A DNA stretch of 52,957 bases, filler included, from Streblomastix strix (Eukaryota): the NCBI GenBank assembly GCA_008636045.1. It is 3 parts of 3 records of this genome, joined end to end, with 100 filler letters (N's around TTAATTAATTAA, not from the genome) between each part and the next. Parts side by side here need not be neighbours in the genome. Positions count along the whole stretch, not along the records: positions 1 to 17,600 come from SNRW01000691.1; 2 more parts are not named here. One strand, given 5' to 3'. Under the pieces are notes generated by a model. It was not told the DNA's origin and searched no databases. It saw nothing but the letters and a program-made list of their open reading frames with translations. A program made the translations under genes and the position numbers. Shown here piece after piece: positions 1 to 52,393 of this stretch; position 1 is the first letter of the stretch; each line of letters begins with the position of its first letter.

Positions 1-3000
1 ACTTTGCTGAACAAATTCATTGGGAATGTAGAAAAGAATGAAGAATTTGTTTGTATTTTATTTTATTTATTTAATATTTATATATAATAAATCAGGTTCT
101 GAGCACAACAATCTAACATGTTATTGGAGTTCGAAATGGGAGTGATGACAAAACAATTCTTGCAGGAGCTGTAACAGATTCAATGATTCTTTCCATTTTT
201 GTATATATTCTGATTTTATTTACTTTTCTATTTAATATTTATTATATATTTAGTCTCCAGATGAAAAGACATCAAAATCAGGAAGCAAATCACTATGCGA
301 TCTAATTGAAGAAAATGAAATATTCGGACATTCACTGATGACAACTGGATTCATCTAGAAAGTTCAACATGCATTCACAAATAACTAATAATCTTCTTCT
401 TCCTCACAAACTGAAAGCACGACGCCTTATCATGTGAAATGTGGACTACTTGATATTATTCATAAGTTAGCTGCTACTGTTGATGACCTTCAACCAATTT
501 CAATTCTGATTCCAATTCTAATTGTATTGAAAACCAATGAAGATAAAAATATAAAGAAAAAATCAGAAAATATATTCATATTTTTGAATTCGAAAGGAAT
601 CAATGCTCCTTCATCCGAATCTACAAAAGAGAATGATGAAAAGATTCAATATTTAGAAGAATAGAACAGAATTAAGGATGAAGAAACGAGAAGAAAAGAT
701 GAATAACTTCAAAAAGAATTAATTGAAAAATCAAAAGAGACGAAACGAGCCGAAGAAGCTGAAGAAAAAGTGCGCATTGCTGAAGAACGTGCGAGACTTG
801 CAGAAGAGCGTACAAGATAAGCCGACATTCAATTAAGAGCAGCTTAAGATCACGTACTATTAGTTGCAAAATAAACTACAAAACCATCTCAAAGTATATT
901 TTTCTTATATAAAAAAAGTTTTTTTTGTTATTTTATTATAATTATCTTTATTTTAATTATTTATAATTTATTTTTTATATCTAATCCTTAGTTCCTGCAT
1001 CACTTAACTCAGCGCTTCAAAAGATGAATGTTCCATAAGGAGATAAGGGCAGAGTTTAAGGAAGTTCTTTTGTTCATTCGAATGAAAGATGTAATTCCAC
1101 AATTACAATGGATCCGATCATAAATGAAGGAGTTGCACGTTTTGAAGTAGTTTTCAATGAACACGATGGAGAAAAATTCAGTTTGATATTCAAGTTTATA
1201 TTTAAAGGATTACGAACATATTTATTCATATTTAACTTAATAATTATTTATTAGGTTTGGGAATTGTTATTGCTTCGCAAGTCTTTAAATAGAATGATTT
1301 ACCAATTGGAAGTGTGATATTTAATTTAAATAAATATCAAATATTGATTATATTTATATTTTTTATTTATTTATTTATATTTATATTTTTTATTTATTTA
1401 TATTTATATTTTTTATTTATTTATTTATATTTATAAATGAAATATATGATTGTTTTTAATCAAATTATTAGTGAGTTTGAATAATTAAAATTTATAATAT
1501 ATTTTTAAAACAAATTACTATTTAAAATTAATTTTTTAAAAAATCTTTATACTTTAATATAAAAATTATTTTTATAAAATTTCAATTCAATTAATAAATT
1601 AAAATTATTAATATTTGATGAATTATTTGATATATATAAAAACAGCTTGTATGAATAAAATTTAAATTAAACTGTCTAATATATTAAAATATAATTAAAT
1701 AATAGAATAATGAAAATTTCTAATTATTTATTAATATTATTTATTAAAATTTTAATTAATTTATAAAATTATTATTATTAAATTTAATTATAATTATATT
1801 TCAAATTATAATTATAATTCAAATTATAATGGAAAAATATTTGATGATTTTTCTATTTAAAATATCAGAGAGTATGCATAAAATATAATAATAACTATTT
1901 TATTTGAACAAATATAATTAAATGATTGATTATTGAAATTTTCTAATTATTTTATAATATTTATTATTTATATTATAATTAATTTATAAAATTATTAATT
2001 TAAATTTAATTAAAATTATGATTATATTTTTAATTGAATAATATTTGATTAATTTTCTATTTAAAATATCAGAGGGTAAGCATAAAATATAATAATAACT
2101 AATTTATTTGAACAAATATAATTAAATGATAGATTATTGAAAATTTCTAATTATTTATTAATATTTAATAATATTTTGATTAATTTATAAAATTATTATT
2201 TTTTTAATTTAATTATTATTATAATTATATTTGCAATTGAATAATGTGTGATGTTTTATCTATTTAAAATATCAGAGGGTATGCTTTAAATATAATAATA
2301 ACTATTTTATTTGAACAAATATAATTAAATGATAGAAAAATGAAAATTTCTAATTATTAAATAATATTAATTTTTTTTTTTTTAAATAATTTATAAAATT
2401 ATAATTTTTAAATTTAATTATTATTATAATTTTATTTATAATTGAATAATATTTGATGATTTTTCTATTTAAAATATCAGATTGTATGCATAAAATATAA
2501 TAATAACTATTTTATTTGAACAAATATTATTAAATAATAGAATATTTAAAATTTCTAATAATTTAATAGAGTAAATTATTAATATTTTAATTAATTTATA
2601 AAATTATTATTTTTCAATTTAATTATAATTATTTTTATATTTGTAATTGGATACTATTTGAATAATATTCTATTTAAAATATCAGATTGTATGCTTAAAA
2701 TATAATAATAACTAATTTATTTGAACAAATATAATTAAATGATAGATTATTGAAAATTTTTATTTTTTAATAATAGTTAATAATATTTTTATTAATTTAT
2801 AAAATTATTATTTTTAAATTAAATTATAATTTTATTTAAAATTTAATAATATTTGATTAATTTTCTATTTAAAATATCAGTGGGTATACTTAAAATATAA
2901 TAATAACTATTTTATTTGAACAAATATAATTAAATGATAGATTATTGAAAATTTTTATTATTTAATAATAGTTAATAATATTTTAATTAATTTATAAAAT

Positions 3001-6000
3001 TATTATTTTTAAATTTAATTATAATTATTTTTATATTTGTTATTGAATAATATTTGATTAATTTTCTATTTAAAATTTCAGCTAGTATGCTTTAAATATA
3101 ATATTAACTATTTTATTTATTCAAAAATAATTAAATAATAGAATAATGAAAATTTCTAATTACTTAATAAAGTTAATTATTTATATTTTTATTAATTTAT
3201 AAAATTATTATTTTTAAATTAAATTATAATTTTATTTAAAATTGAATAATATTTTATGAATTTTCTAATTAAAATATCAGATTGTATGCTTAAAATTTAA
3301 TAATAACTATTTTATTTATTCAAAAATAATTAAATAATAGAATAATGAAAATTTTTAATATTTAAAAATAATAATTAGTAATATTTTAATTATTTTAAAA
3401 AATTATTATTTTTAAATTAAATTATAATTTTATTTAAAATTGAATAATATTTGATGATTTTTCTATTTAAAATATCAGTGAGTATGCATAAAATATAATA
3501 ATAACTATTTTATTTGAGCAAATATAATTAAATGATAGAATAATGAAAATTTCTAATAATTTAATATAGAAAATTATTTATATTTTTATTAATTTATAAA
3601 ATTATTATTTTTAAATTAAATTATAATTTTATTTAAAATTGAATAATATTTGATTAATTTTCTTTTTAAAATTTCAGGGGGTATGCATAAAATATAATAA
3701 TAACTATCTCATTTGAACAAATATAATTTAATAATAGAATAATGAAAATTTCTAATAATTTAATAAAGATAATTATTTATATTTTTATTAATTTATATAA
3801 TAATTATTTTTAAATTAAATTATAATTTTATTTAAAATTGAATAATATTTGATTAATTTTCTATTAAAAATATCAGCTAGTATGCTTAAAATATAATAAT
3901 AACTATTATATTTGAACATATATTATTAAATAATAGAATAATGAAAATTTCTAATAATTTAATAAAATTAATTATTTATATTTTTATTAATTTATAAAAT
4001 TATTATTTTTAAATTAAATTATTATTTTATTTAAAATTGAATAATATTTGATTAATTTTCTATTAAAAATATCAGCTAGTATGCATAAAATATAATAATA
4101 ACTATTTTATTTGAACAAAAATAATTAAATGATAGAATAATGAAAATTTCTAATTATCTTATAATATTAATTATTTATATTATAATTAATTTATAAAATT
4201 ATTATTTTTTAATTTAATTATTATTATTATTATATTTTTAATTGAATAATATTTGATGATTTTTCTATTTAAAATATCAGAGGGTATGCTTTAAATATAA
4301 TAATAACTATTTTATTTGAACAAATATTATTTAATAATAGAATAATGAAAATTTCTAATAATTTAATAAAGATAATTATTTATATTTTTATTTATTTATA
4401 TAATAATTATTTTTAAATTAAATTATAATTTTATTTAAAATTGAATAATATTTGATTAATTTTCTATTTAAAATATCAGCTAGTATGCTTAAAATATAAT
4501 AATAACTATTTTATTTGAACAAATATAATTTAATAATAGAATAATGAAAATTTCTAATAATTTAATAAAGATAATTATTTATATTTTTATTAATTTATAA
4601 AATTATTATTTTTAATTTAAATTATAATTTTATTTAAAATTGAATAATATTTGATTAATTTTCTATTTAAAATATCAGGGAGTATGCATCAAATATAATA
4701 ATAACTATTTTATTTGAACAAATATTATTTAATAATAGAATAATGAAAATTTCTAATAATTTAATATAGATAATTATTTATATTTTTATTAATTTATATA
4801 ATAATTATTTTTAAATTAAATTATAATTTTATTTAAAATTGAATAAAATTTTATGATTTTTCTATTTTAAAAATAAGATTGTATGCTTAAAATATAATAA
4901 TAACTATTTTATTTGAACAAATTTTATTAAATAATAGAATAATGAAAATTTCTAATAATTTAATAATATTAATTATTTATATTATAATTAATTTATAAAA
5001 TTATTATTTTTTAATTTAATTATTATTATTATTATATTTTTAATTGAATAATATTTGATGATTTTTCTATTTAAAATATCAGAGGGTATGCTTTAAATAT
5101 AATAATAACTAATTTATTTGAACAAATATAATTAAATGATAGATTATTGAAATTTTTTTTATTTAATAATTGTTAATAATATTTTTATTAATTTATAAAA
5201 TTATTATTTTTAAATTTAATTATAATTTTATTTAAAATTGAATAATATTTGATTAATTTTCTATTAAAAATATCAGGGAGTATGCATAAAATATAATAAT
5301 AACTATTTTATTTGAACAAATATAATTAAATGATAGATTATTGAAAATTTTTATTATTTAATAATAGTTAATAATATTTTTATTAATTTATAAAATTATT
5401 ATTTTTAAATTAAATTATAATTTTATTTAAAATTGAATAATATTTGATGAATTTTCTATTTAAAATATCAGTGAGTATGCATAAAATTTAATAATAACTA
5501 TTTTATTTGTTCAAAAATAATTAAATAATAGAATAATGAAAATTTCAAATTAATTAATTATATTAACTAAAAATATTTTAATTATTTTTTAATATTAATA
5601 TTTTTAAATTTATTTATTTTTATAATTATATTTGTAAATGAATAATTTTTGATGTTTTTTTTTCTATTTAAAATATAAGGTTGTATGCTTAAAATATAAT
5701 AATAACTATTTTATTTATTCTAATTTTAATATATAATACATTAATAAAAACTTCTAATTATTTAATAATATTAATTTCAAATTTAATTATTATTTTATGT
5801 ATTTATAATTATATTTTATTATATATATATTAAATTTTAATAATTCTTTTTATAAAGATGGATATAATTCTGCTCGTTTCTTAAACAGGTATTTTTATTT
5901 TAAAAATATTTATTAAAATATTTTTTATATTTAAATTTTTTTAATCTCTTTAGTGGGAACCTGGAACATCGCCTTTACCATATAAATAAAAATTCTGTTC

Positions 6001-6348
6001 CAATCAAAGGCAATTCTCCATTTGATTGCGGTCAGAAAATTTCAATTGAAGTAGATATGACTTCAAATCCGAGAAGGGCTGTGTTTTTCATAGATGGAGT
6101 CGAATAAATAAATTCAGTTGTCAACATTCCAGAAGCTGTTCGTTTCTATGTATGATTAATTATTTAATTAATATTTTTATATTAATATTTATTTATTTAT
6201 TTTAAACTTTTATATGCTTAATCAGGTCTATGTATCCAAACCGAATTCATCTTTCCAAGTTACAAAGTTTGAAAGACTTCCTGTTTCATCTGCTCGTGGT
6301 GTCCCAGGATCAAGATAATGGTACTGGGGAACAAATTGGATTCAATGA
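1..6348 (+). CDS. Multi-exon gene, 5'-truncated: helical/coiled-coil region plus C-terminal SPRY/B30.2-like beta domain. Exons <1-48, 96-200, 254-893, 992-1180, 1255-1311, [optional 3-nt microexons], 5858-5888, 5954-6149, 6226-6348
   Basis: All introns are GT-AG with consistent phases. With TAA/TAG=Gln the spliced frame is open: ...TITMDPIINEGVARFEVVF...FSLGIVIASQVFKQNDLPIG|NGYNSARFLNSGNLEH...GNSPFDCGQKISIEVDMTSNPRRAVFFIDGVEQINSVVNIPEAVRFYVYVSKPNSSFQVTKFERLPVSSARGVPGSRQWYWGTNWIQ*. The SPRY-like call is from motif resemblance only. Confidence 0.85.
1450..5720 (+). repeat. Tandem array of ~195-205-bp AT-rich units (about 20 well-conserved plus 2 divergent 5' units) inside the gene 1 intron 1312-5857
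   Basis: Recurring core ttttctatttaaaatatcAG-NNN-GTatgc(a/t)taaaatataataataactattttatttgaacaaat at ~200-bp period. Confidence 0.97.
1472..5682 (+). other. 22 candidate 3-nt microexons: 1472 tga, 1646 ctt, 1869 aga, 2073 agg, 2276 agg, 2481 att, 2686 att, 2881 tgg, 3082 cta, 3281 att, 3479 tga, 3678 ggg, 3877 cta, 4076 cta, 4281 agg, 4480 cta, 4679 gga, 4878 att, 5083 agg, 5277 gga, 5472 tga, 5680 gtt
   Basis: Each triplet is preceded by an acceptor-like AG (cag x19, aag x2, tag x1) and followed by a donor-like GT (mostly gtatgc; also gtaagc, gtatac, gtatga, gtttga), similar to donors of ordinary introns in the same gene. No transcript evidence. Confidence 0.75.
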
Positions 6349-6779: not shown

Positions 6780-15650
<8,871 letters not shown>

Positions 15651-17600: not shown

Positions 17601-17700
17601 NNNNNNNNNNNNNNNNNNNNNNNNNNNNNNNNNNNNNNNNNNNNTTAATTAATTAANNNNNNNNNNNNNNNNNNNNNNNNNNNNNNNNNNNNNNNNNNNN
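17601..17700. other. Artificial contig linker N44-TTAATTAATTAA-N44
   Basis: An identical 100-nt structure occurs at 35280-35379, and the core has TAA in all six frames. Confidence 0.95.
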
Positions 17701-18356: not shown

Positions 18357-19750
18357 TCATTTGTATTCTTATTAGCCATGATAAATGAGATATTAGCCTT
18401 CTTATCCATTAGATCCATACTTAGATTTCTTCTACAATAATTATATGCAAAATAAAAATATATTATTTAGATATATTATATCGATAATTTATATATAAAA
18501 ATACCTTTCTAGGAGCAAAGTCTTTAATGAATATTGTGTTTAATATAGCTGCAATAAGAATTACTAATCCAACTACAATTCCAATAATAATATTTGTATT
18601 TTACCACCATTTGTCTTGAATCTCATGAATAGTTATATCTCCAATAAAAAGTAATTCATCATCATCATCAGGTCCATAATATTAATAATGAATACTGCCA
18701 TTTCCAGCATCAGATTAACTTCCATTGAACATTGCACTTAAAAAAGTTGAAATGATAACTTAGCTGCAGTCATCAGTTTTATTGCTGATTCTTAAGAAAA
18801 CGTCCTTACCAACTCCTATTGATTAATTGTTTTGATTTTTGGAGAATTTGTTATTCTTGAAGCTGATTTTGGAGTTGTTATTATCAGTGTACAGATATAT
18901 AGCACCAGAATAATTTCTAAAATTATTAGTGAATGTGTTACCTTCAACAATGAATTCACTTAGATTGACTTTATCATTGCGGTGATCAGCAATGAATATA
19001 GCACCTGTTGCCGAATTCATACTTGTGCAGTTTATGAATTTATTACCTGTTATTTGCGCTTTAACAACTTTCATCCATCGTATTTCAAGTGTAGCAGGGT
19101 TATAATTATCAGTGTTATTCAAATTAACAAACTCACAGTTATAGATAATTAATGATCTAAACTCTCACGTTTCTTTGAATCCATAAAATAAAATTGCATT
19201 TTAAGCTCCTTGGAAAGTACAATTGTCAATTTCTACTCTATTTCCATTAAGAATCTGCTCATGAACATATCCTGCTTCTTTATACCATAAAGGAAATGAT
19301 TAGAATGTGCATTTGTGCTGAATTATGAACGGTAAAGTTAAGTTTGTATAAGGTGGTTCACCAACAATATCAACATCAATAAAACAAAATCTAGGAGTAA
19401 CAGTAGAATTGGAATCATTATGCAAAAAGAAATGGAATTCGATGTTTTCTAACGTAACATCTCCTTTATAAAGACAAATAATATTTAATTCATTTATATT
19501 TAATTTCCAGATAGTTGAAATCTTATTTGCATTCTAACAGTAAAAAAATTAAAAAATAAAATATGAAAATGTTAATTCGCGGAATTCTCAGATCAATGAA
19601 GATGAAATGAGATAAGAAAGAAACCAAAAGTAATGACTCAATTAATTATGTTATACTGTCTTTTGAATTTATTGATATTTACAGCTACTCTATGATCATC
19701 TATATCATAAAGATAAACAAATTATGATCCAGTTTTCTTTTATACATTAA
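18357..19750 (-). CDS. Parallel beta-helix (pectin-lyase-like) type I membrane protein, 5' end apparently missing, one in-frame TGA at 19165
   Basis: Repeats CTFQ/NCTF/NCEF/NKFINC/GAIF/NTFTNN/GAIY, a TM segment IIIGIVVGLVILIAAILNTIFI, an intron at ~18432-18504 and the tail KKSKYGSNGQEGQYLIYHGQQEYK*. Confidence 0.7.
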
Positions 19751-19929
19751 TATGAAATAATCTATAATCATTAACATTACGCTAGTAAAATTTATCTGTT
19801 TGCTAACTATAGGAATAGGATTAAAAATCATAATAATCATGATTAGTAGGATAATTTTCTACATCATAAGCGTCATCAGGGAGTTTATTTACAAAGTTAT
19901 ATTTAATTTTTTCATTAATTGAACGTCTA

Positions 19930-22900
19930 AATTTTGTTTAAATTCAAATTATTATTTTTCATTGTTCCATTTATTTACAATCATTGAATAGCACTTAGGT
20001 CCAAATGATGTAAGTTCATCTCCTTCATTTTCTATTCCAAATCCAAGTATCTTTTTGTAGTCATAGAAATCTTTATTAGGATCAGGTAAATATTAGTATA
20101 CATGTTAGTTATAGAACTATTTATCTGATACTATAGCTTCAAATTATTAATAACAATCTTTATTACGAACTCCAGCAATAGCTATATAAATTGAATCAGT
20201 ACCTGCAAGAACAAAATGAAATCGTTTGCGATCAAGATATTTAAACATAAAGTTATGTATATAATTGAGATACCAATATTTTGCATCATCTAGTGTAAAA
20301 ACTCCTGATTAAATTGATGTAAAACAAGTAGCTTTCTTAGATTTAATTTATACTGCAAATGTGTTAGCACCAATCCGTCCGGTACCAATGTGATTAGGAT
20401 GATGCTATGCAATAAATGTATCGGCTTTATCTAATAATTTGATCTTAATAAATTTCTCTATATTTAATGTATCATATCCATATGATGAATTAATTAATGA
20501 TTTATAGAATTTCTCTTTAGATGATCCTGCTAGTATAGTTTAAATTTTTAAGTTCATAATTGTCCTAACAAAAGGTTCATATACCGCATTTTTCTCAAAG
20601 ACAGCAATAGATTTATAATCAGTATTGACGAAACCGAGATCAATAAGTAGCCAAAGATAACAGTTATTGAATACAATAAATTATCCATTAGTGTCGAGTA
20701 ATGTTGTTAGTTTTCTATCTTTCTTAGTCATTGGAAATGAATGTTTTTGTGCTTATGAATACATATATTCACCTATCACTTCTTTCTTATTTTCTATCTC
20801 AATATATCTAAATATAGCAGGTAGTGCAAGGAGGTTATTGTATTCAGATTTAGGAAAATACCCTTTGACTTTTGCTACGAATATATCCTTTCGCTAATCT
20901 ATACAATTTTTAATTACATATGGTTTTTCTGAATAAAATCTCGATCTGCCTGCCATATACATTCTATGATCTGCGTAAGGAATATTTTCATTTTTGACTG
21001 ATGAATATGAACTTGGATAAAGACTATTACCGTCAAGAGCAAATATTTGTGTAGTACCATTTTCATTATCTTATGAGATCACTTTGTTTGATTATTCATC
21101 ATATGTTAATTCATTTATATGTGTTTATCCTGCTATGTTTTCCCTATGTAATACTGCTGCTAGACCACCTGTAATACATTCTCGAAGTAGATTATATATT
21201 CTTTCATCACTAATTGTCATAGATAAGTTGTTCTTTATTGACTATTATCTGATCTTAAAATATAATGAAGTAATAGTTGGATCTCTATTTGCGTGTGCAA
21301 TATCACATGAAACACATGCAAGCAAACAGTTATCTTTAGTATGAGGAAGTTCATTATTTTATCTATCTAAACTAGGTTGATTATCATAAATAAATTTAGC
21401 ACTACAAATTGAACATATTGATGTACTGAATAAATTTTTGTAGTATTCATAGTCATCAACTGTTACGTTATTTTCAGTTTCTCTACCTGCTTTATAATTC
21501 TATTATTTATAATTATAACACTTATTTTTCCAGTGCCATTCTGTTTGTACAAAAGGTTTAGAATTAGGATTTGGATTAGTGTAGTCAGCATTTATATCAA
21601 AATCTTCATAGTAGCAAGCTTTAACTTGCTGGCATAAATCCTAAACTTGTTTGTCACTTTCAAGATTGAATTTAGAAGGAAAGTATGTTGAATAGTGTTT
21701 CGTTGCATACGCACATGAAGCTATTGAAATATAGTGTAAGATATAAATATTAAATTATTCAAGTGTATCAATTAAATTCATTAATGGTTTAACCATAATT
21801 TCTGTATCATTAATGTTATAATATTTGAGATATTCTAATCTGTTATTGAATCTCTTAAAATCAATTAAATATGACTCATATTCATCTTTTGTAATAGAAT
21901 AATCTCCTTTGAGCTATGATTTAAAATCTTCATATTCAAATTGTTCTATTTTCATTAATACATCGTTCCAATTCTTTAAGTTAATAATTTCATATGGAAA
22001 TACATCTTTATGTTCTGATTTATCTCCATAATCTTTTACGCAAGCTTTTAATGTCATTGGTCCAAATTTACTCTCTGCATCAATAAATTGTAATTTCATG
22101 TGTGACTTCTTATATGTTACTGTAATTGATTTAGTATTATTGAGATCACCAATAAGTACACCCATTGTCCAAAGTTCACAATCTAATGCATCCCATAATA
22201 GAGCAATATCAAATCTTGAACTAATCCACCCCAGTACTTTAACACATCTGTCAAAAGGAATATTATCATCACTATACTTCATCCACTAATATATCTATTC
22301 TGCTGATTCGAAAGTTTATGCGAACCATAGATGAACAAACGAAGAATTGGATGGTAATCCATAAATTTATAACTACTCTTAATTATTTCCGATAATTCAT
22401 CAAATAATATATAACATCTCTTAATTAATTCATATGATTTAGCGTTTATGCCACCAACGGAGTAGGTACTATTATTAGGATATACTTCTGTACATGCAAT
22501 TGATAACTTATATAATTATGATAGTAATGTTGTTTAATCTGTTATACTTTTCATAACTTAATCACTTAATGTTTCAAACTCATATGTTATAAATCCTCGC
22601 TATGCATTATATTGAAACATTAATCTATAACCCATTAAGTTCACTATAGTAGGGTGATTTAATAACGCGGGACATATAGACATTGGAACATCATGTAATA
22701 AGATAGATGGTTCATGAATTGATGATTTACATTTTTCTACATGAGTACTGAAATATTCATTAGCTCTATAATTTGTTTTTGGTAGTATTGTTACATAATC
22801 ATGACAGTGAAGACAAATAAGAACACCAGTCAATTTTTTAACATTAGATATATACATCACATGTTACTCACTTCCATTACTAATGAGTAATAAATCTAAA

Positions 22901-28632: not shown

Positions 28633-31586
28633 TCATTAATATTCCTTAATATCAGATTAGATTTATTCCTTAATATCAGATTACAATTATTCTTTAACAT
28701 CAGATTAGATTTATTCTTTAATATCACATTAGATTTATTCCTTAATATCAGATTATAATTATTCTTTAACATCAGATTAGATTTATTCTTTAATATCACA
28801 TTAGATTTATTCCTTAATATCAGATTATAATTATTCTTTAACATCAGATTAGATTTATTCCTTAATATCAGATTATAATTATTCTTTAATATCACATTAG
28901 ATTTATTCCTTAATATCAGATTATAATTATTCTTTAATATCAGATTATAATTATTCTTTAATATCAGATTAGATTTATTCCTTAATATCTGATTATAATT
29001 ATTCATTTATATCAGATTAGATTTATTCCTTAATATCAGATTAAGTTTATTCTTTTATATCAGATTAAGTTTATTCTTTTATATCAGATTAGGTTTATTC
29101 CTTAATATCAGATTATAATTATTCCTTAATATCACATTAGATTTATTCCTTAATATCAGATTATAATTATTCCTTAATATCAGATTAGATTTATTTTTTA
29201 ATATCAGATTAGAATTATTCTTTAATATCCTTATATTCTTTATTCCAATTTTCTTGTGGCATCTTTAGTTCGGGTTTTGATTACTTTCTTGGAATTGTAA
29301 GTGATCGAGTGTATTTAATTCTCCGTTCATTTGAAATGAATGGATTGCTTGTGCTTACAAACCTGCATATTCATTGATGAATTTTTATTCGATCAGGAAC
29401 AAATGTTCGACCACAAACTGCACACGCTATTAATGCTCCTCCATACGTATCTCCTTCATATTTATTAATAATTGGTTATCCATCAGAAACTTTTGGTTAA
29501 TTATCATCATCTTTTGCCAAAGTGTCAGATTGAACCAATTTCTTCTAATCTGATTAAATAATAAGAAATAAATAATTAAATAATTAAAATATATATACAT
29601 TTAATTAATTAGAATATTAATATTAATATTAATATTAGTTAAATATTTCTAAAATTAAAATTGAAATAATAAAAAAGATGAATAGCTTACTTTTTTTAAT
29701 CAAATTAACCATAGCAATTGCTTTTGGGCATGATTTAAGATGTTTATCCATATCACATTTTCGTACTCCTGCATCGCAATATCGACATGGGATTTCAATT
29801 ACTCGCATTTTCTGTTCGCATTATTTAATATGGATAGAAAGTGATCTTTTAAAGTACATCATTCCACAATATGGACATGTGATTGCTTTTGAATATTTGA
29901 ATGGTGATTAATCTATATTTATAAATATTTAAAAATTAAATTAATGTAAATAAAAAATATTTATTATAAATATTTCAAATTAATAATAATATAAAATTAG
30001 ATATATATATTTCTTTAATTAAATTATAATTAGAAATAATATTAAAATTTATAAATTGAACATAAGGATTCAATTAATATATATTTATAATTATTTTAAA
30101 TATCATTTAGAATTAATCATACCAAATACGCTTATGTCCCCACGTTTTATTATTTCTTTAGCCCATTTATTGAAATTTTCATATGAAAATTATGTTGATG
30201 TTTATGGTTCATTTTCTTTATTTACTTATTCATATTCTTTTTAATTCATAATTGTTTTCAAATCTCCAGTTGATTGATTTTTTGTTAATTTATTATCATC
30301 TTCTTTATGACTATGTGTAGATCTTTTGAAACTACCTGATTCTGAGCGCATCGGACTATTTGTGGCCTATATTTTATATTACTACATATAATAAATATAA
30401 TTATTAAAAATTATTTATTCAATTATCAATAGATACTTTGTTCATATTTATATAGTATAAATTAATTATTTAATAATATAAATTTTTTATTAATTTTTTT
30501 AAAATAAAATATTTTGCAAACTCTTTCAATTTGATTCTTTCGGCATATTTGTTAATGTTTCATTATTCGATCAGGAACAAATGTTCGACCACAAACTGCA
30601 CACGCTATTAAAGCTCCTCCATATGTATCTCCTTCATATTTATTAATAATTGGTTATCCATCAGAAACTTTTGGTTAATTATCATCATTTGTAATAATGT
30701 CAGATTAACCTAATTTCTTTTCATCTTATTTTATAGTAAACAAAAAATATATTAATTAAGATAAACATTTATTTAATTAATTAGAATATTAATATTTATA
30801 TTAATATTATTAGTGAAATATTGTTAAATTAATACAGAAATAATAAATAATAAACGATGAATAAATTACCTTCGATTTATTATATAATCCATTCAATAGC
30901 TTTTGAGCATGATTTAAGATGTTTATCCATATCACATTTTCGTACTCCTGCATCGCAATATCGACATGGGATTTCAATTACTCGCATTTTCTGTTCGCAT
31001 TATTTAATATGGATAGGAAGTGATCTTTTGAAGTACATCATTCCACAATATGGACATGGGATTGCTTTTACATATTAGAAATCTAAATTAAAATATTTAA
31101 AAATTAAATATATGGAAATAAATAATAGATATTAATTAAAAAGTTTTAAAGTTTATTTAAATATATTATTATTAGAAATAATATTAAAATTTATAAATTG
31201 AACATAAGGATTCAATTAATATATATTTATAATTATTTTAAATATCATTTAGAATTAATCATACCAAATACGTTTGTGTCCCCACGTTTTATTATTTCTT
31301 TAGCCCATTTATTGAAATTTTCATATGAAAATTATGTTGATGGTAATGTTGAAAATGGATCTTATTACATTTTTTAATTCGCACTCTTTGCACGACCCTT
31401 TGTGCTATTGTCAGGATTAAATACATCATCTTTTTCTTTATTTATTTGATCAAATCCATTTTAGTTCATCAGCGTTTTCTAAAGCCCAGATGGTTGACTT
31501 CTTGAAAATGTATCTTTATCTTTATCTTTATTATATAATGATTTTAACACACAAAAAGATTCAGAGCGCGTCGTATTCTTCATCAA

Positions 31587-34087: not shown

Positions 34088-35279
34088 TCAGCATATCAAA
34101 TGGATGTTCCTTATTTTTCCTTCAAAACATTACCCTGTCTCCAAAGGAGACGAGGATAATAATTGGTTACCCCCTTCTCTCCTTATCTCACCTCTTTATT
34201 GAGATACTTAGTTTAACCTTTCGTTATCTTTGCCTTGAACATTTGTCAATTACCTAGCTATTTCGTTTGCTCTTATTGAGGTTGCAAAGATGTAGTATTA
34301 TTGAACAGTACGTGAGTTTTGGGAATGATGTGCAAAGGTAGCGAGATCTCTTTCAGGGATACCTAGCTTTGCAAGTTCTGTTGTTGCTGAGTGTCGAATT
34401 GAGTATGCAGATGCTCCTACAATCTTCAGTTCTCTTAGTAGTTTAGTAAGTTGTAGGCTGATATCTTTTGTAGTTGTCGGTTTATTAAAACCTTTATGCC
34501 TCAATAAAAAGTCTGTACATTTTGGAAATTGTTTCTTAAGTCTATCGATCCATTTATATATTGCTAGCTTTGGGCTCAAGCTTTCATTATCAGTTTCGTA
34601 TACTTCATATGTTTCAATAGCATTAGCTTGTTTTGGTGCTAGTCTTAATGATGCTTGATTCTCTTTTTTATCAACATTCGAGAACTTCAATCTTATTTCG
34701 GCTATTTCATTTGGTCTAAAGAAGCATACTGACATCAATAGGGAAGCTATTTTAACCTGAAAGTCATAGTTATTTAGGTATTTGTTTTGTTTTGATTGTC
34801 TCCAATGATTGAATAGTATTTGGATATTCCAAATGTTTTAATATCTTCTATGCGGTATTGTTGCATTTGCTAGTGCTTTGTTAATTAGTTTTGAAGTTAT
34901 TGAGGATGCTAAACTCTCTTTATATATTAGAGATAACATTGTAGTTGGGCAAGCTTTATGGGATTTAACTGATGCGACTGAGTCGTTTTATCTTGTATGG
35001 AAAGCAATTACTTCTGTTAGTATTACTTCAGCGTCTCTTTTCATCATCTCTTCAATTGTTATTCTTTCTATATCTAACCAATCCTGTAATAATGCTAGGG
35101 AGTAAAAATCTCTCTTAACTGTACTAAATCTTTGTCCTTTGAATAGCAGGTTGACTCCATCTTCGGAGAATCCTCTCATCTGCATACATCTCATTAGCAA
35201 ATCTCTCCCGACGTCTGCGACAGGTCCAGAAGGAAGGCGCCCACATTACCTGGTGGAAACTTTTGATCCTTGTCTTTCA
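34088..35279 (-). mobile_element. 3' part of a DIRS-like retrotransposon: tyrosine recombinase ORF (~35220-34088) overlapping the tail of the upstream pol ORF
   Basis: Catalytic motifs CFFRPNEI, AYSIRHSATT, FAHHS and TVQQYY (the Tyr is reached only if TAA=Gln). An upstream frame ends KFPPGNVGAFLLDL. Higher GC, no introns, cut by the contig end. Confidence 0.85.
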
Positions 35280-35379
35280 NNNNNNNNNNNNNNNNNNNNN
35301 NNNNNNNNNNNNNNNNNNNNNNNTTAATTAATTAANNNNNNNNNNNNNNNNNNNNNNNNNNNNNNNNNNNNNNNNNNNN
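35280..35379. other. Artificial contig linker
   Basis: Same structure as 17601-17700. Confidence 0.95.
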
Positions 35380-35640
35380 AAAACGCCAGGAAACAAACAA
35401 AATGAGCTCAAACAGATTTTTACTGAAGTTCGAACACGTTCTACGAGCGATGCAAGGAATGGATCACGATATTTGGAGCTGTATGAGTTGGGGACTAATA
35501 ATATTAAGAAAAAAAGAGAATTGATTAATTAGAATGCAAATACAGCACCGAATTCTATTGGTGGGAAAGATAGATTGGAAAATTCGTTGGAATTTACTTT
35601 CAAACCAGAAAATTCTTTGATTGAGAGATGGAATAGAATA
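35380..35640 (+). CDS. Fragment of a hypothetical protein at the contig start
   Basis: Open frame KTPGNKQNELKQIFTEVRTRSTSDARNGSRYLELYELG... with coding-like composition. Confidence 0.35.
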
Positions 35641-39653: not shown

Positions 39654-42600
39654 TCATTCTTAAAAGTTCTATTCATTCTTTTCTTTGTTCATTTTTGATC
39701 CTCTTCTTAAATATCTGTTTATTGTATCAATTATTTCACCAACTGTCTTTTATATCAAAGTTATGCTCTTATATTCACATATTTAAGTCTCAAGCAGAAT
39801 TATTAATGAATCCCACAGTGTGAAATTGATATAATTTGAATTAATTTGCATATTTTCATTTATTTATATTATTTATTCTTTCATTACTAGAGGAGAATGA
39901 AATATGAGATTGAATGAATGAATTATAAAATCATTAATTTATTATTATGAAGAATTAGACGAATCAACTGAATGTATTATTAATCGAATTACTGTTTTTA
40001 TCAATGAAATGAGTTTGGCCACACATAAAACACCAAATTGAACACAATTCTTAATTTCATTAATTAATAATTATTAATCTTNNNNNNNNNNNNNNNNNNN
40101 NNNNNNNNNNNNNNNNNNNNNNNNNNNNNNNNNNNNNNNNNNNNNNNNNNNNNNNNNNNNNNNNNNNNNNNNNNNNNNNNNTTAGACGAATCAACTGAAT
40201 GTATTATTAATCGAATTACTGTTTTTATCAATGAAATGAGTTTGGCCACACATAAAACACCAAATTGAACACAATTCTTAATTTCATTAATTAATAATTA
40301 TTAATCTTGATCTTTCTAATCATCTAATTATTCTTCATTAAGAATACTTGAAGGTAATATGGATATAATGAATATTAAAGTGGTTGTAATTGATTACACA
40401 ACAGAGTGCTTATTAAATAACCATTCAATTATTCTTACAGCTAAATCGATATCTTTATTTATTGATTAATTTATTTTTTTTAATTGTTCATCTAACTCAA
40501 ATATATTCTCTTCAATTTCATAATTTTCTTTTATTGGGTACGTTTATTCATTATAAAATTCTTCATCTTTCTATATTTCTTCACTCTAATCAATTTATTA
40601 ACTTTTATTCTGTTTCTAATTCAAAACAGTCAATTATTTTTCCATCAGACTTCTTTTATTCCCCAATTCACTCACTTTTTGAAGTCTTTGCAGTTAATCT
40701 TCCTCCAAAATAGAAACAAGCGAAACCAAAGCGCTGAATGAGTATGAAATTGGAAGCCAAATTGATTCTAGTTCTTTCCCGCTTTCTTGACCAGCTAATT
40801 GAATGGCGGCTTGTTGGCTCATTTGCAGTAATATTCCAGAGTATCTTTTTGCTCTTTGCTTTGCTTTTTCTTGTTGTTTTAGATTGACTCTGTTTTTAAC
40901 TTATTGAATTCTGTATTCGTTGTCTTTTGAAATGGTGTTTATAGTATTGAAATTCTATTATTCTTTATCTGTTTTATTATCTATGATCTAGTTATCATTT
41001 ATGCTTTCATCTATTTTTAAGTTTTCATTATTAATAGTTTATTATTATTAACTGTTTGTGGTCAAATTAAATGTCTAATCTTATAATGAAATTATTGTGG
41101 AATCTAATTAATTACTTTATTACTAAGAAGAGGAATTAATTTTAAATATTGGTGCAATTGACAATGTATTATCAATAAGCATTATTTGTTAAGCAGCGAT
41201 CTTCATTAAGTCTTTATTTTTATTTTATTTCTATTCAAATTTTTGTTCTTCCTTATTTTATTGTTCATTTTCATTATTAATCTTTTCATTCTTTATTATA
41301 TTATTATTATCACTTTACTAAGGCGTTATTATGTTCATTTTTATTTATCTTACCAGTTATTATGTATTTGATTAAATTTATATTAAATTTTGATTATTTT
41401 TAATAATATTATTTTATTAATTTACAAAATTTTTATTCATATTATTGAATTAAATAATAGAAGTTTGATATTATTCATTTCGTTGCTATTCTATTTATTT
41501 ACTAATATTATCTTTATTATTAGGTTCTATATAAATTTTATTAATATTATTCATATCTTAATATATCTTTATTAATTATTAGTATAATAAATTAATTTTA
41601 TTTTATTATTTGGATATTTATTAATTTAAATTATTCTAATCAGTTTAACTATTCATCCAAGTTTTCTTTCTTTCATTTATATATGAAAATAAATCAGATA
41701 ATGTGTTTCTATTTTATTTATTTTCCTTTTAATCTTCACTGTTTTCAATATTAACAACTTAATCAATTTCATTAATACATTTATTATCTTTAAATGCAAT
41801 AGCCATAATTAATAATCCTAATTATCCATTATTTATTCTATTAATATTTTGCATTATATGTTTAATCCATTTTTATTTTGGAAATTAAAAATTATTATTG
41901 TTGTTTATATTATTTAAATATTATTTGTTTAATTACTATTAATTATTAATATTAATAATATCCTTACTATTAATTGGAAGTTCATTATTACCTGAAGATT
42001 GCATAACATAATCTTAATTAAATATCACTTTAACAGTTAAGTCTTCTTCATCATCTTCTTCTTATTCATTTTAATCTTCTTCATCTTCATCAAATTAACT
42101 ATTCCCTCTATCTTCATAATTTCTTTATTTCTTAATCTTCTTTTTATTCTAAACATCCTCTTTACTTTTGTACTATTAATGAATCCATTCATTCTTCTGC
42201 ATAATATATCTGGTTAATGTGAATATCTTTCTTAGCATTGGAATTATTATTGTGAATAAAGAAGAAGTCGATTGAGATGGAATTGGGAGTGATAAATATG
42301 TGAAATATGTGAATAGAGGATTTAATTATGAAATTGGTTGTTTATTTTAATGAAGTGAAACTTGTTCTAAAGGATTTGTTTGTTGTTGTTGTTATTCACA
42401 TTAATCATTTTATTATTTTAATTCTAATTAATGTTATTCTTCTAATTGATATTTCTAATTCAGAGAAGATTTCATGACGTCAATATTAAAATATTCAACA
42501 CTAAATATATCTAATAAAATTGATAATGAGGGAATAAACCTTGAAATTATTGTTTTTCTAGTAGAATTTGGAATGATAATTGGCATCAATGAAAGAATAC

Positions 42601-45600
42601 GCTATATTAATATTGAATATGATAAAAATAATATTAATGTACTATATGTGCAGTTTTATAACGATGATTCTAAAGTTGATTGTTATTGAATCAATTAATA
42701 TTCAAGGTTGGCATGTTAATGAGAAGATTATGATTAATCTGATTAGTATTATGATAATTAATTTTGTTTGTTTTTATTTTTATTGAAATTATTAATAAAT
42801 GAATCGCATCTGCAATTAATCTAAATTGGTAATGAAATTATAGTTGAAATAAATTCAATTATCGAATCTGAAATATCAGGCTATTTAATTGCTGGAGAAA
42901 ATTATACTTCTAATAATAATTATGTGAACAATTATATACATTAAGATTCTACTATTAAAATATTATTACTTATACTTTATACTGTATTATAATATTTTGA
43001 TTATTTCTTTATTTATTTCATTTATTGAAGATAATTATTCTGATTATTATTAAATTCATTCAGATTATTAATATTATTATTTATTTAACATTATTATAAT
43101 ACATATTGACTTAAACAAGTTGATGGAGATGAATCAGTTTATTGAGAAAGTGATTATGCAGTATTCCAATATTATATTTAATTAATATGATCATATTTTT
43201 ATTTCATTTTTTAATTAATGATTTATCTTGCATTAATATATTATTATTAAATTTCTTAATAATTCTATAAATTAGATTAATTGTTACTATTTATCTCTTA
43301 TTTATTTATATTTCCCAAAACAATTTCATTTTCTTCCTAAATTTCATCAAGTTCTTCTCTTTTTCTAAGTATTTACATCAATAATTAATATTTCTGAATA
43401 AATGAAGTTGAAAGTAATTATAATGTTTGTATAATAATACAAATGACTGCTGCATTGTTTTTGGATTAGAACCTTGATGTGTGAATAAATGTTCTTAATG
43501 CTGATGATGCGACAATACAAAATCTGTATAATGGAGATTAAATTTGTGAATTGTTATTATTATATCTTAATTTATTATTATGTTTATTATTATTGTTTTT
43601 ATTGCTATTCAAACTTGATGGACTATTCCAATAAAGCATATTATCATCTAACAATTAATCATCATTTTATTCATTTTTTTATTCATTGTTCTTATATTCT
43701 TATTCTTTCTATTTATTACATTCTTATTCATTTATTTTATTCTATTGTTATGGTGTATTTAACCAATGCTTTCTATTTTATTTTTAAGTCTAAATATTCA
43801 ATTCAAATTCATTATCAACAGATAAAGGAGAATCTTGCGAATTAGATGATTATTATATCAATAAGTTATTCAAATGTTATATTTCATCTTCTTCTAATGA
43901 TACTTGGTGAGTTTATTTATCATTAATTTTAACATTTAGCTTTTCTTCTTCATCTTCGTCATCGTTTCTTTCATACAAAACTAAATTATTAGTTTCTTTA
44001 ATCATCTACAATTCTGTTTATTATATTAATATCTTTATAATATATATTGTGCATCTACCATAATTTCTTATTTCTTATAATTATTTCTAGTGAAGTTTGT
44101 TGTTATTGTTTAAATTATTTTACAATTATATTGATTATTATTATTATGATTATTATAAAGATTGTTGATCAAACCATTTCTTTCTTTAAGGAGTTGATTA
44201 TATTTATTGACTATTAAGCATTGTTTATTATGTTAATAGTTGTGATTATTATATATTTAATTATTAATGCTGTTATTACTTAATTTATGATTAAGGATCT
44301 ATGTATGACTGTTATTTCAAAATGAATGATTAACATCCTTTTTTAATTTGTAATTACTAAGAAGATTGCTACTATTAAAGTACATAATTACTATAATCAA
44401 TTTTATCGCTATTATTTTCATTTAATTGTTCATTATCATTCATAATTTCATTATTTCTCTCTCTCTTCTTGACATAAATTGGTGTTAAATGAATGATTCT
44501 TTGTTCATCAGCACAAATATCGCATGAAAATATACCTTTCAATCTTGAGTATGTATAAAGCAAAATATAGATCTCATTTTATAGGATTTTTGTTTCAAGC
44601 TTAATAATTTGTTGTTATAATTTAGAAGAATGTGAAGTTATTGTTTAAGATAATGTAGATTAAAGTGATGATCTAACATCAATTGTTTAAATAAATTACT
44701 GTTATTTTTGTTAGTATCCATCTTAATTACTATCATATTCATTTTCATTTTCACATTATTAATTCCAATATTCTTAATATTCTTATTTAAGCCATAAATT
44801 CCATTTTATTCTTTCTTGCAATATTTATTCATTCTCAACCCATTAGTAAAGTTAATCAACAAGTAATGCTTATTTTTTGTTATTTAATTTTTGTTATTTA
44901 TTTTATTCAATTAAACTTTCTTTATTATCATCTTCATTTGCACCAAATTATATTTCATTTTCTTTATCTTTTTGAATATCAATCTATTATTATTAGTTTT
45001 GTAATTATAAGTCTTCATCCAACTAGACAATTAATTCACCCCAATTCTATCCTTCATAATCTTCTTATTCTTATTATTAATTTAATTCAACTTTATTTGT
45101 TTATGAATGTTTGTTATTATTTTAATTTTTATTCCTTCTTCTTATTAATGAAGATGATAATGCAATTTTCATTATAATTTCTTCTTTATCAATCTATTTC
45201 ATTGTTTATTTCTATTATTGCAGTGTTTGTTTCAATTGCTATTTGTTTTAATTGTTCAATTATTATTATTATTAGCTTAATGGTGTCGATTAAGGCGAAT
45301 TCAAATTAGATTGAAATTTAGATTATTATTATTATATTGAATTAATTGGAGATGGAATGTTTTAATATGGAGAAACTAGTGAAGATTGTGAAATAGGAGA
45401 TAATGAAGGAATATTATTGTTGTTAATTGTATTGATATTATTATTAATTTATTTATTCATATTCAATTATATTCTATTTAACTGCTTTGATTTAATCCAA
45501 TTAACAAATGAATTCAGCAATTGTTCAATTTAATGCTGTTGTGATAAAATATTAATTGATATGTATTGTAAAAGTAATGAAGAATGAACTAAGAATAATC

Positions 45601-48600
45601 GCATGTGTAAATTAGGTGGGAAATACAATGATTGAAATTAATGTGGAGGAAGAATTGATATTGAAGGAGATTATTATGATGATTTATTTTATTATTAATT
45701 TTTAGGTTTGAATTTTGTTGATTTATTTAATTTTATTTCTTTTCCTTTTTTATTTTAAGGTTCATCTTCAATGTATTTTATTTTCTCTTCATTATTCATC
45801 AATAATTACAATTCTTCTTCTTTTTATTCTTTTATATACAAAGCAATATCATTAATATCATCATTAGCCTAATTAACGAATTACTTCATTTCTTCCTTCA
45901 AATCTTGCTTGTCTTTGTCAATATGATACTACATTGCATCTGACAATAAAGCTATGATATCTTCTGTTATTAATTGATCTCCTTGTTATTGATGCAATGA
46001 ATATGGATGTTGCAGATATGGTGGGTATGGTGGTGATTATATATTGGAAAGATTGATACTAATAATACAAGTATTTTCTTTACTCATATTTTTAGTATCT
46101 TCATTGTTATTATTATTATTAATTTAATGATTGGAAATCTTCTTGTCATTATTTTTTTAATAATTTTATTCAATTTATTCATTAAATTGCTATTACTATA
46201 TTATATTGCATGTTTATATAACAGTATTGATTAATCTTACACTTTCACTAACAATGTGAATATTGATTGTTTATGTTGATAATAATGATGAACATGCTTC
46301 AATGTATATTTAAGGATGAATATTAAACAATAATATAGAATGATCTTATTATTATGAAGATGAAGATTATATGGTATTAGAATATAATGATGAAGGAGAT
46401 GTAAATTATTTATTCATAGTTTAATCGTGTTTTTATTAAGTTTATGAATAATTTGTATATGAATTTGTAAAATTTGATGATTTTACTAGTGGTTGAGTTA
46501 AACTAATAAAATTATTGTTAATTTATTTATTATTCATAATATTATTGGGAGTTTATTGTTATTATATTTAAGATTATTATTATATTGTATGAATATTATT
46601 ATTATTTGTGTAAGAGTTCTAATATTATGAAACTTTTCTAACTAATGATGGAGAATTAACAATAAATTATTATATAGTTTATTGATCAATTTATTTCGAA
46701 GTTAGTTAAATTTATGGATTTGTATTATTAATTTCTTTATCTATATTAAATTAATCTTTATTTCTTTTTATTTATTTATTTTCTTTCTATTATTTGATAT
46801 AAACTTGTCTAATATTGTAATTAATGAAAACAATGCATCTTTACAAAAGAATTGAAGGAATGTTTATGTAAAGAGATTATTATTGTATTGATAGTAATGC
46901 AAGACAACTATCAATTAAAGTTGGAAGAAGTGGATTGTATTTTTCATTTAAGTTATTAAATTATTATTTATTAATACCTTATTCTATTTCATTATAACCT
47001 TAATTGGAATTTTAATTTTAATCTATGTAACTACTATAGTAAAATTTATCTTATATTAACACATATTATGATATATAATTCAACCTTCTAATAATTTCAT
47101 GCCATTCTTGTACACTATATTTCTATATATTAGTGCTTTAATTATTTGAATCATTATTATTAATTTATTCTTTCAATGCAAATAATTTTACTTCTTCAAA
47201 TTATTAATTTTCTTCATCTTTTTATTGCAATTCGTTGTTTTGTTATTAAACCAATAAAGCAATTCCTTATATGAATATCATAACTTATTTATTCTTATCA
47301 AGTTATAAAAACTTAGTTATGGATGGCATAGAAAATTATGATGATTATAATTATTATTATTCTATTAGTGATGATTATTATTATTTTTTATTAAGTGTAT
47401 TTTGTTATTCTTGTAATAAAATATTAACATTTGGAGATTTAGGAGGTCTTTTCGAATATTAATTCATTGAAGCATTATCTTTATTACTAATACTACTATA
47501 TTAATCTTTTTAATTCAATCTATTATTAATAAAATCAACCTTCTTATCCATATTTTCTGAATTTTGAAGCAGAGATTAATATTTTGATTCAGATTTTGAA
47601 TACGAATTTGGATACAGACGAATTGAGTTGGATTTAGGAAGATTAGGTGTGATGGATTTCTAATGTTATTTTATTTGTTATTTCTCCTATTATATAATTA
47701 ATGATTGTTCTTATTATTAAATTGAATTAATATTAGATAATGAATTATTATTAGATAATGAATGAGAGCGTGCATGTGAATGAAGATATTCATGTTTTTG
47801 CTCCTATTATTATGACTGTAATAACTATTATTATATTTATTATGTTGAATTCAAATGAATTGAAGGAGATGGGGTTCGAGATATTATTTATTATTAAGAT
47901 GATTATTATGATAATTTTTATGAAGATTATGATGATTAAGATTAACATCTTTGCATTAATTTATTCTTTGTATTTTCATATTTTTCTTTCAATTCTTGTT
48001 TAATTCTCTCTTTTTCAATTTCTTTTTCTTTTTGTTTCTTCATTTTCCATTCAATTTCTTTCATTCTTTCTGATTCTTTCTCTTTTTCTATATTTATTTT
48101 CTCTTATTCTTTTTCTTTCCTTATTTATTCTCGTTTTTCTTTATCTTTATTCCATTATTATTCTCGTTATTCCCTTTATTTCAATATTTATTCTTTCTCT
48201 TATTCTAATCTAAGTTTCTTCTCTTTTTCTTTTATTTCCTTTTCAATAGTGAGTTTAAAATTCTTAATTGAATTCTCTTTATTAATTTTTTAATGGCTTG
48301 ATTCTTAAGTCGTTTATAATTCATTGTTATTTTCTTTGTTTTATTCTAAATTATCTTATTTCAGTTCAATTTAATTGTTTATTTACTCTTATTAATCATT
48401 AAAATTAATTTCAATTTCAATTATTTAAGAGTCATCATGAATTTTTATTAAATTATCATCTTTTGTTTATATTTTATTTTGTTCTTTAATCATTTAATTA
48501 TTTTAATTTTATTCTTCAAATATTTAATCAATTTATATATTTTCTTATATATTTTAACTTTTATTTAATTCTTATTCATTATTTTCTAAGATATCATCCA

Positions 48601-51600: not shown

Positions 51601-51895
51601 TATCTTTTTCGGTTTATGATATTTTACTCTGGGAATTATATTTCAATTAATAACTATTATCAGTTGATTTTGTTTTGTGCAACTCTTTCAATGCATTCAA
51701 ATGTAAACCTGCTTCAGAAACATTAGATGTAGAAGGTTATCGAAAAATAGAACTATACGTATTCTTTTACTAATGTTGTTGGTTCAATTGAGTAGTTGAT
51801 TTTGAAATCTTAGAATTTTATTTTGTATTCTCTAACTCTTTTAACAAATGCGTTGAGCTTGAAACTAGCTTTTGAGAACTCTTCGATGATTTCAT
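39654..51895 (-). CDS. Giant (~4000 aa) apparently intronless Q/N/S-rich protein with interspersed helical globular segments
   Basis: ATG at 51895 (MKSSKSSQKLVSSSTHLLKEL). Sampled segments are open in code 6 and use TGG for Trp (YSVQEWHEIIRRL, IKWNLWLKQ, ESIWLPIS, TLWDSLIILL). Ends ...QNFQE TGA TTA TGA. Not every codon was checked. Confidence 0.75.
40082..40181. other. 100-N scaffold gap flanked by a duplicated ~127 bp (unmerged overlap)
   Basis: 39955-40081 is identical to 40182-40308. Confidence 0.9.
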
Positions 51896-52393
51896 GTTTA
51901 ATTCTGATTTAAATTAATAAAAATATTAAACATTATTATGCATTTTAATAATATTAGTAAAATTTTAATAAATTATTTAATTATTTAAACTTATGATGGC
52001 AAAAAAAGCTTTTAAATAATATAGAAATTTTTATTTGAAATTAAGTACAAAAGTAGTACTAAAAGTTTATTAAGAAATTATAAATAATTAAATATAATTT
52101 TGGAATTCTTATTAAAAGTTGAGTATATTAAAAATTAATATTCTGAAATTTAAGGGAAGCGCAATTTAGCAAAATGTGATTTTTTCTTCTGTTTTAAAAC
52201 TTTTTTTTAATCGTTATAAATAAATTATTTAATTTAAATTTTAATTTACATTTAAATTTAAGTAAATATACTAATTCAAACGTGATATATTAATTAATTC
52301 TTAATTTGAAAAAGTTCAAATTTAATTAGCATTTTTAAATTTTTTTTATGTATTATTAATCCTAAACATTAAATTGAACTATGTCTGAGCAAA

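Follow-up and report, generated by a model that had tools for sequence, protein, structure and literature searches.

Within the literature we found, codon-sized exons as a route to protein diversity are reported only for NLR genes of truffles: the NACHT-ankyrin genes of Tuber melanosporum are said in the parts cited to gain diversity from tens of codon-sized exons of 3 base pairs (bp) that are alternatively spliced (PMC4986451, PMC13449251, PMC9815663). Another known case of very short exons are the Schistosoma micro-exon genes (MEGs), which are described in the part cited as encoding secreted proteins, with exons of 3–81 bp, long introns and alternative splicing (PMC10526429). SPRY domains, in turn, are stated to bind their targets via hypervariable loops (PMC13175477, section 10). 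For SPRY/B30.2 proteins, no splicing-based variation of such loops at the codon level was found in the literature searched, and we found no paper on oxymonad microexons in a search that subscription papers and bioRxiv supplements lay outside of. Streblomastix strix is such an oxymonad, i.e., a metamonad protist of the termite gut that is single-celled and has its surface covered by bacterial symbionts. Here, we analyze a stretch of 52,957 nucleotides (nt) from this organism (GenBank assembly GCA_008636045.1; hereafter "the window") that carries a gene with a predicted C-terminal SPRY domain, into which 22 nucleotide triplets are set as a repetitive array (Table 1). Judging from the DNA sequence, we propose with a probability of roughly 0.6 that these triplets are optional exons of which about zero to three are kept per mRNA, varying one predicted SPRY surface loop, and tens to hundreds of loop versions would thus come from one gene.

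A site check of positions 1200–6000 gave 22 AG-NNN-GT sites within 1472–5682, all of them where an earlier note on this DNA had placed them, compared to a mean of 2.6 and a maximum of 10 in 500 base shuffles of 1312–5857; the array is in excess of chance and real. The units comprise TGA (three times), CTT, AGA, AGG (four), ATT (four), TGG, CTA (four), GGG, GGA (two), and GTT, and the 23 intervals between the flanking exons measure 160–220 nt each. All 20 units inside the tandem repeat have both AG and GT, with CAG as acceptor and GTATGC as donor in 18 of 20 each. Published Streblomastix introns are described, in the part of the source cited, as having A, U, and G at +3 to +5, a pyrimidine preceding the AG, and lengths of 46–229 nt (PMC1501061). 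The borders of the array fit these splice signals, which supports the triplets as exons, and on this sequence evidence they are very probably 3-nt exons. The repeat motif of the window had no matches in viral contigs and none in prokaryote genomes. Streblomastix strix is reported to read TAA and TAG as Gln (PMC13002328), and under this genetic code 6 the eight ordinary exons of the host gene join into a frame that is open for 462 codons and then ends in a stop, with an incomplete 5' end.

What sets the triplets apart from the rest of the repeat is their variability, with a pairwise difference between units of 64% versus 9.7% over 73 flank columns, and a G+C content of 41% that is exon-like inside a very A+T-rich repeat. 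On a tree of units built from the flanks, triplet positions 1 and 3 took 10 changes each, compared to a flank mean of 1.1 and maximum of 8. This tree carries no triplet signal (14 changes, the same as for shuffled triplets; Mantel r 0.08, p 0.16), and in all three unit pairs with the closest flanks (4–5 differences) the triplets differ. When one repeat unit was compared to public DNA contigs, run X1 gave 124 matching contigs and run X2, from a second study, gave 21, while runs X3 and X4 had one partial contig each and were excluded from use. In the X1 and X2 contigs, each of the three triplet positions has alternative letters, with none listed at AG or GT. The repeat therefore exists beyond the assembly, and there are copies with triplets absent from the window. 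Restriction of position 2 to G or T within the window (P 0.011) was rejected as a rule for the repeat family, as the X1 contigs also carry A there at 17% of summed depth (in 5 contigs) and C at 7% (in 3 contigs). A final C is nearly absent (0/22 in the window, 7/471 in the metagenome arrays described below, and about 1% of X1 depth), perhaps due to a splicing constraint.

Two other explanations have to be weighed against these patterns. The array might be a DNA-level library whose units mostly stay silent in mRNA, with deletion or gene conversion between repeats setting which one to three triplets a copy expresses. Triplets that leave no signal on the flank tree, new triplets in the X1 and X2 copies, and paralog models differing by whole codons all suit this idea, but both splice sites are kept in every unit, needless for a silent donor, and no collapsed copy of the locus was seen, so that we regard it as unlikely. 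Alternatively, a minisatellite or self-copying intron-like element could be spliced out as a whole, leaving a short loop and no triplet in any mRNA. Skipping all units does keep the frame open and gives a loop of 25 residues, the length found in 13 of 100 family domains, and our metagenome scan also returned plain minisatellites with the AG-NNN-GT word. However, the triplet is nearly invariant in those minisatellites, while in the window array it varies more than any other part of the unit and has exon-like G+C, and a neutral repeat leaves unexplained why three bases are hypervariable when the AG and GT around them are invariant; we consider splicing out as a whole quite improbable.

The earlier note had placed the array in phase 1, and this holds: the donor at 1312 leaves A, the next ordinary exon begins with AT, and the frame is open. 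A donor at 1314 (phase 0) was rejected, as it brings the downstream exons out of frame into a stop and there is no alternative acceptor in 5683–5875. The two introns preceding the array are also phase 1, and the paralog model P0077 reads through at the place of the array, its Gly-Ser-Met being in line with A|GTATG. These sequence comparisons give good support to phase 1, and it looks inherited from a pre-existing intron. Read in phase 0, the ten distinct triplets would give one stop and three synonymous pairs by the code table.

The C-terminal domain family to which this gene belongs has 230 representatives at E<=0.001, often C-terminal to a kinase domain, and all eight named relatives that we looked up are S. 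strix proteins. A Pfam scan of two window exons gave no hit, including none to NACHT or ankyrin, with the 5' end of the gene lying outside the window, and PF00622 matched at E<=0.01 in 9 of 66 family members. The family profile matches the SPRY domain of TRIM67 (7qs5, E 4e-4), and the atlas model of P0156, which is 78–82% identical in two exons, reaches TM 0.76 to an SPSB3 cluster, both sides being predicted models. By this evidence, the domain family has a SPRY fold. The array falls into the loop that comes after a conserved Gly-Ile strand. This loop is among several stretches that vary in the family and may correspond to v2 of TRIM5. In 100 of 103 aligned family domains, it has 24–28 residues in 98 cases (26 in 29, 27 in 48, and 28 in 3 of them), with one loop of 17 and one of 32 residues as the longest. 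The loop of the window gene would have 25, 26, 27, or 28 residues with zero to three triplets, and 47 with all 22.

Seven paralog models share an FS[LV]GI-type motif ahead of the site, and three close ones carry a few residues exactly where the array lies, i.e., two in P0152 (Met-Asn), three in P0001 (Asn-Glu-Asn), and four in P0156 (Asn-Ala-Asn-Asn). In each, the first residue can have an A-first codon and the last is Asn, so these peptides fit the fixed A and AT flanks plus one, two, or three triplets; the triplet at 1472 alone in mRNA would yield the very dipeptide of P0152. In P0027, P0154, and P0077, the model ends or enters an intron at the site, and P0005 is more distant. Few exons per mRNA are indirectly favored because the paralogs carry 2–4 residues and the loops of the family fit zero to three, not 22, triplets. 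This bears on the possibility that most or all triplets are always included and that diversity arises between alleles or paralogs via recombination of unit number and order. Strong, near-identical splice sites in nearly all units and the open full-inclusion frame would be in line with that, but the resulting 47-residue loop exceeds every one of the 100 family domains (none above 32) and the close paralog models hold no more than their 2–4 residues, making constitutive inclusion unlikely, if slightly less so than a silent library.

Several points weigh against optional inclusion of few triplets. Inclusion, skipping, and the number of isoforms are predictions from DNA, and of the three paralog peptides the window triplets can spell just Met-Asn. 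The paralog sequences are automatic gene models, and their 2–4 residues may have come from ordinary indels within plain exons. Support for the unit tree is weak, its units are probably mosaic, and the change counts are no formal selection test, while run X1 is possibly related to the assembly source rather than independent. Target binding by the array loop is argued by analogy. Finally, the fungal-like arrays described below keep their border codons between loci, which suggests that some one-codon exons are constitutive.

These arrays came from a pattern scan for three AG-NNN-GTATG sites in 30 of 64 metagenome parts that yielded 115 loci, of which 114 were read. A filter for spacing of about 71 nt and varied triplets was passed by 63 loci; ten of these were removed because their spacing was irregular or they had fewer than six distinct triplets, and the remaining 53 formed 46 clusters. 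We thus obtained 46 distinct arrays of one-codon exons with a period of about 71 nt on soil and wood metagenome contigs. Among their 471 triplets there are 2 stops versus 20.6 expected, a tenfold depletion (Poisson p 3e-7), while GA starts are present in 42 of the 46 arrays. Few stops and common GA starts fit a reading of these arrays as phase-0 codon exons in the standard code. Five of nine flanking open reading frames tested match NPHP3_N, four of these with NACHT above the cut-off, i.e., they encode NACHT-type nucleoside triphosphatases, and several arrays lie directly behind frames of this type. The arrays have a homogenized core with variable codons, diverged margin units, and border codons conserved between loci, and we infer a fungal origin. 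They suggest that the Tuber-type system is widespread. None of the scan matches listed is an array of the window type; the 114 loci are either 71-nt arrays or minisatellites. Stop avoidance is real for the phase-0 arrays, but the window, with its single array, offers too few triplets to reveal it in phase 1.

This matters for a strong form of the earlier note's reading, in which phase 1 and the avoidance of GA starts would have been selected to keep all combinations free of stops, enabled by TAG as Gln. The arithmetic of the note is reproduced throughout. First dinucleotides are TG, CT, AG, AT, GG, and GT and last bases A, T, and G; the 18 possible junction codons encode 16 amino acids; single inclusion gives 10 dipeptides, skipping all units gives Asn, and full inclusion gives an open peptide of 23 residues. 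The literal TGA triplets are harmless, as subsets of up to four units contain no TGA codon and larger ones cannot, since no unit begins with GA. The phase-1 setting, the codons built at junctions, and the open subsets under code 6 are supported.

Selection for the lack of GA starts is not supported. Chance suffices across five null models (P 0.11–0.49): with exon composition, the probability of no GA start is 0.49 for the 10 distinct triplets and 0.21 for all 22, with the triplets' own composition it is 0.36 and 0.11, respectively, and by letter shuffling 0.35. The missing GA starts belong to a broader shortage of A and C at the second triplet position of the window array. Turning one unit GA-first would place a stop in a mean of 1.3% (maximum 2.2%) of two-exon and 2.5% (maximum 4.2%) of three-exon isoforms, and because only 1–4% of isoforms are affected and the decay factor UPF1 is reported in the part of the source cited for Streblomastix (PMC1501061), the cost of such a unit would be small. 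No G is listed at the first triplet position for the X1 and X2 contigs, which seems to favor the idea, but 4 of the 22 window units are G-first, so this contig table misses the window's own G-first units and cannot serve as a test of GA starts. Phase 1 as a generator of codons adds no isoforms beyond the triplet strings themselves (10, 68, 370, and 1613 for one to four exons), its effect being that each change is spread over one more residue. TAG as Gln is needed for just 12/231 two-exon and 159/1540 three-exon subsets (5–10%), and similar arrays lie behind open reading frames in the standard code. The non-redundancy of the 10 dipeptides was rejected as a signal (P 0.27, not significant). Although TGA occurs in no subset and stops are truly avoided in the phase-0 arrays, neighboring introns and P0077 are phase 1 anyway, and we regard selection for stop-free combinations as very improbable; the stop-proof and reassigned-code account is arithmetic, not supported as evidence of design.

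Our preferred reading remains that of optional 3-nt exons, and a history for it can be sketched. A phase-1 intron with a 3-nt exon in a loop would have been multiplied by tandem duplication and unequal recombination, with the intron parts homogenized by recombination and triplet diversity kept by selection. Near-identical competing splice sites would make inclusion stochastic, and, as in SPRY proteins of immunity, the loop would contribute to binding a target that varies. With a phase-1 intron, including k triplets rewrites k+1 residues, and no codon is independent of its neighbor; the codons would be split because the intron already was phase 1, not as a device against stops. Going further, we tentatively consider, with more doubt than confidence, that Streblomastix has an independent splicing-based receptor diversifier: arrays of codon-splitting 3-nt exons in several genomic copies that would place a random junction of 1–4 residues in the binding loop of SPRY and kinase-SPRY sensors, an RNA-level analogue of junctional diversity.

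Table 1. Features of the array gene in the window, and an example of the metagenome arrays
Feature	Position	Strand	Remarks
First visible exon	1..48	+	gene 5'-incomplete at window start; open spliced frame; agrees with model P0158
Exon	96..200	+	AG/GT borders, frame open
Exon	254..893	+	charged, likely coiled-coil stretch at end, paralog-like; frame open; no Pfam hit
Exon opening SPRY-fold domain	992..1180	+	phase 1-1; 82% identity to P0156 over 62 amino acids
Exon preceding array	1255..1311	+	last bases GGA-A; donor GTGTGA at 1312, phase 1; sole frame-keeping donor
Candidate 3-nt exon TGA	1472..1474	+	outside repeat, diverged flanks, weaker donor GTTTGA
Candidate 3-nt exon CTT	1646..1648	+	upstream of repeat, flanks diverged
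Tandem repeat	1793..5776	+	period 199, 19.9 copies, 9% G+C; unit of one intron-like stretch (191-220 nt) and one triplet
20 candidate 3-nt exons, first ten in repeat	1869, 2073, 2276, 2481, 2686, 2881, 3082, 3281, 3479, 3678	+	
20 candidate 3-nt exons, last ten in repeat	3877, 4076, 4281, 4480, 4679, 4878, 5083, 5277, 5472, 5680	+	through 5682
Exon after array	5858..5888	+	first bases AT-GGA; acceptor is the sole AG in 5683-5875
Exon, SPRY-fold core	5954..6149	+	74% to P0001, 78% to P0156
Last exon	6226..6348	+	TGA stop; open frame
Example metagenome array	L022:1161-4524	+	others in L004, L005, L014, L021, L029, L035, L073, L078, L080, L094

The public model P0158 represents the same gene and uses an alternative donor after exon 992–1180 that is out of frame, so that it ends before the array; such loci are misread by gene finders. 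The models P0157, P0027, P0154, and P0077 likewise end early near the same place.

Elsewhere in the window, runs of N at 17601–17700, 35280–35379, and 40082–40181, two of which enclose a 12-base spacer, point to a joining of separate contigs, and the array gene may be unlinked to features past 17.6 kb. On the minus strand, there is an open frame of about 4100 codons at 40001–52315 (code 6, Gln-rich, no Pfam hit), a tyrosine recombinase at 34091–35407 (PF00589, E 1.7e-8), and a frame of 968 codons at 19493–22396 with no Pfam hit, which by eye may hold family-B DNA polymerase-like motifs, possibly of a decayed virus-like element. A 24-nt tandem repeat of 24.6 copies lies at 28640–29229, and at 12334–12443 TTA is repeated perfectly about 37 times.

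Compared to the systems described at the outset, the window gene shares with the Schistosoma MEGs the variation through alternative splicing of very short exons, as far as splicing can be deduced for the window. Unlike these MEGs, which are a more distant comparison than the Tuber genes, it has eight ordinary exons, only 3-nt exons confined to one loop of a globular domain, and near-identical introns of 160–220 nt. With the SPRY/B30.2 domains of TRIM and SPSB proteins it shares the fold, and just as their specificity lies in hypervariable loops, the array lies in one variable loop. The metagenome arrays resemble that of the window in their homogenized intron repeat, hypervariable triplet, diverged margin units, and rare final C, but they are phase 0 with a period of about 71 nt, stop-depleted, and have GA starts, whereas the window array is phase 1 with a period of about 199 nt.

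The closest likeness is to the nank NLR genes of Tuber, which also have tens of 3-bp exons (22 in the window) between canonical acceptors and donors in an expanded, likely recognition-type family. For Tuber, alternative splicing is reported in the sources cited, while for the window gene it is deduced from DNA; the Tuber exons are described as codon-sized, with their phase not stated in the parts cited, while those of the window are phase 1 and split codons; and the host domain is NACHT-ankyrin there, but a SPRY fold here, in a metamonad that reads TAA and TAG as Gln and with units of about 199 nt. If spliced as proposed, a single-celled eukaryote would use one gene to make a repertoire of binding loops that vary at sub-codon resolution, and the truffle NLR route would reach a lineage far removed, with another recognition fold and another reading phase. 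If many such arrays span fungi and protists, eukaryotic immune diversity would have in codon-exon cassettes a mechanism that recurs and has been overlooked. If spliced, the window array would work like the Tuber system without being a member of it, as host domain and phase differ, and what is new compared to the Tuber kind is the codon-splitting phase, the SPRY loop, and the metamonad host.

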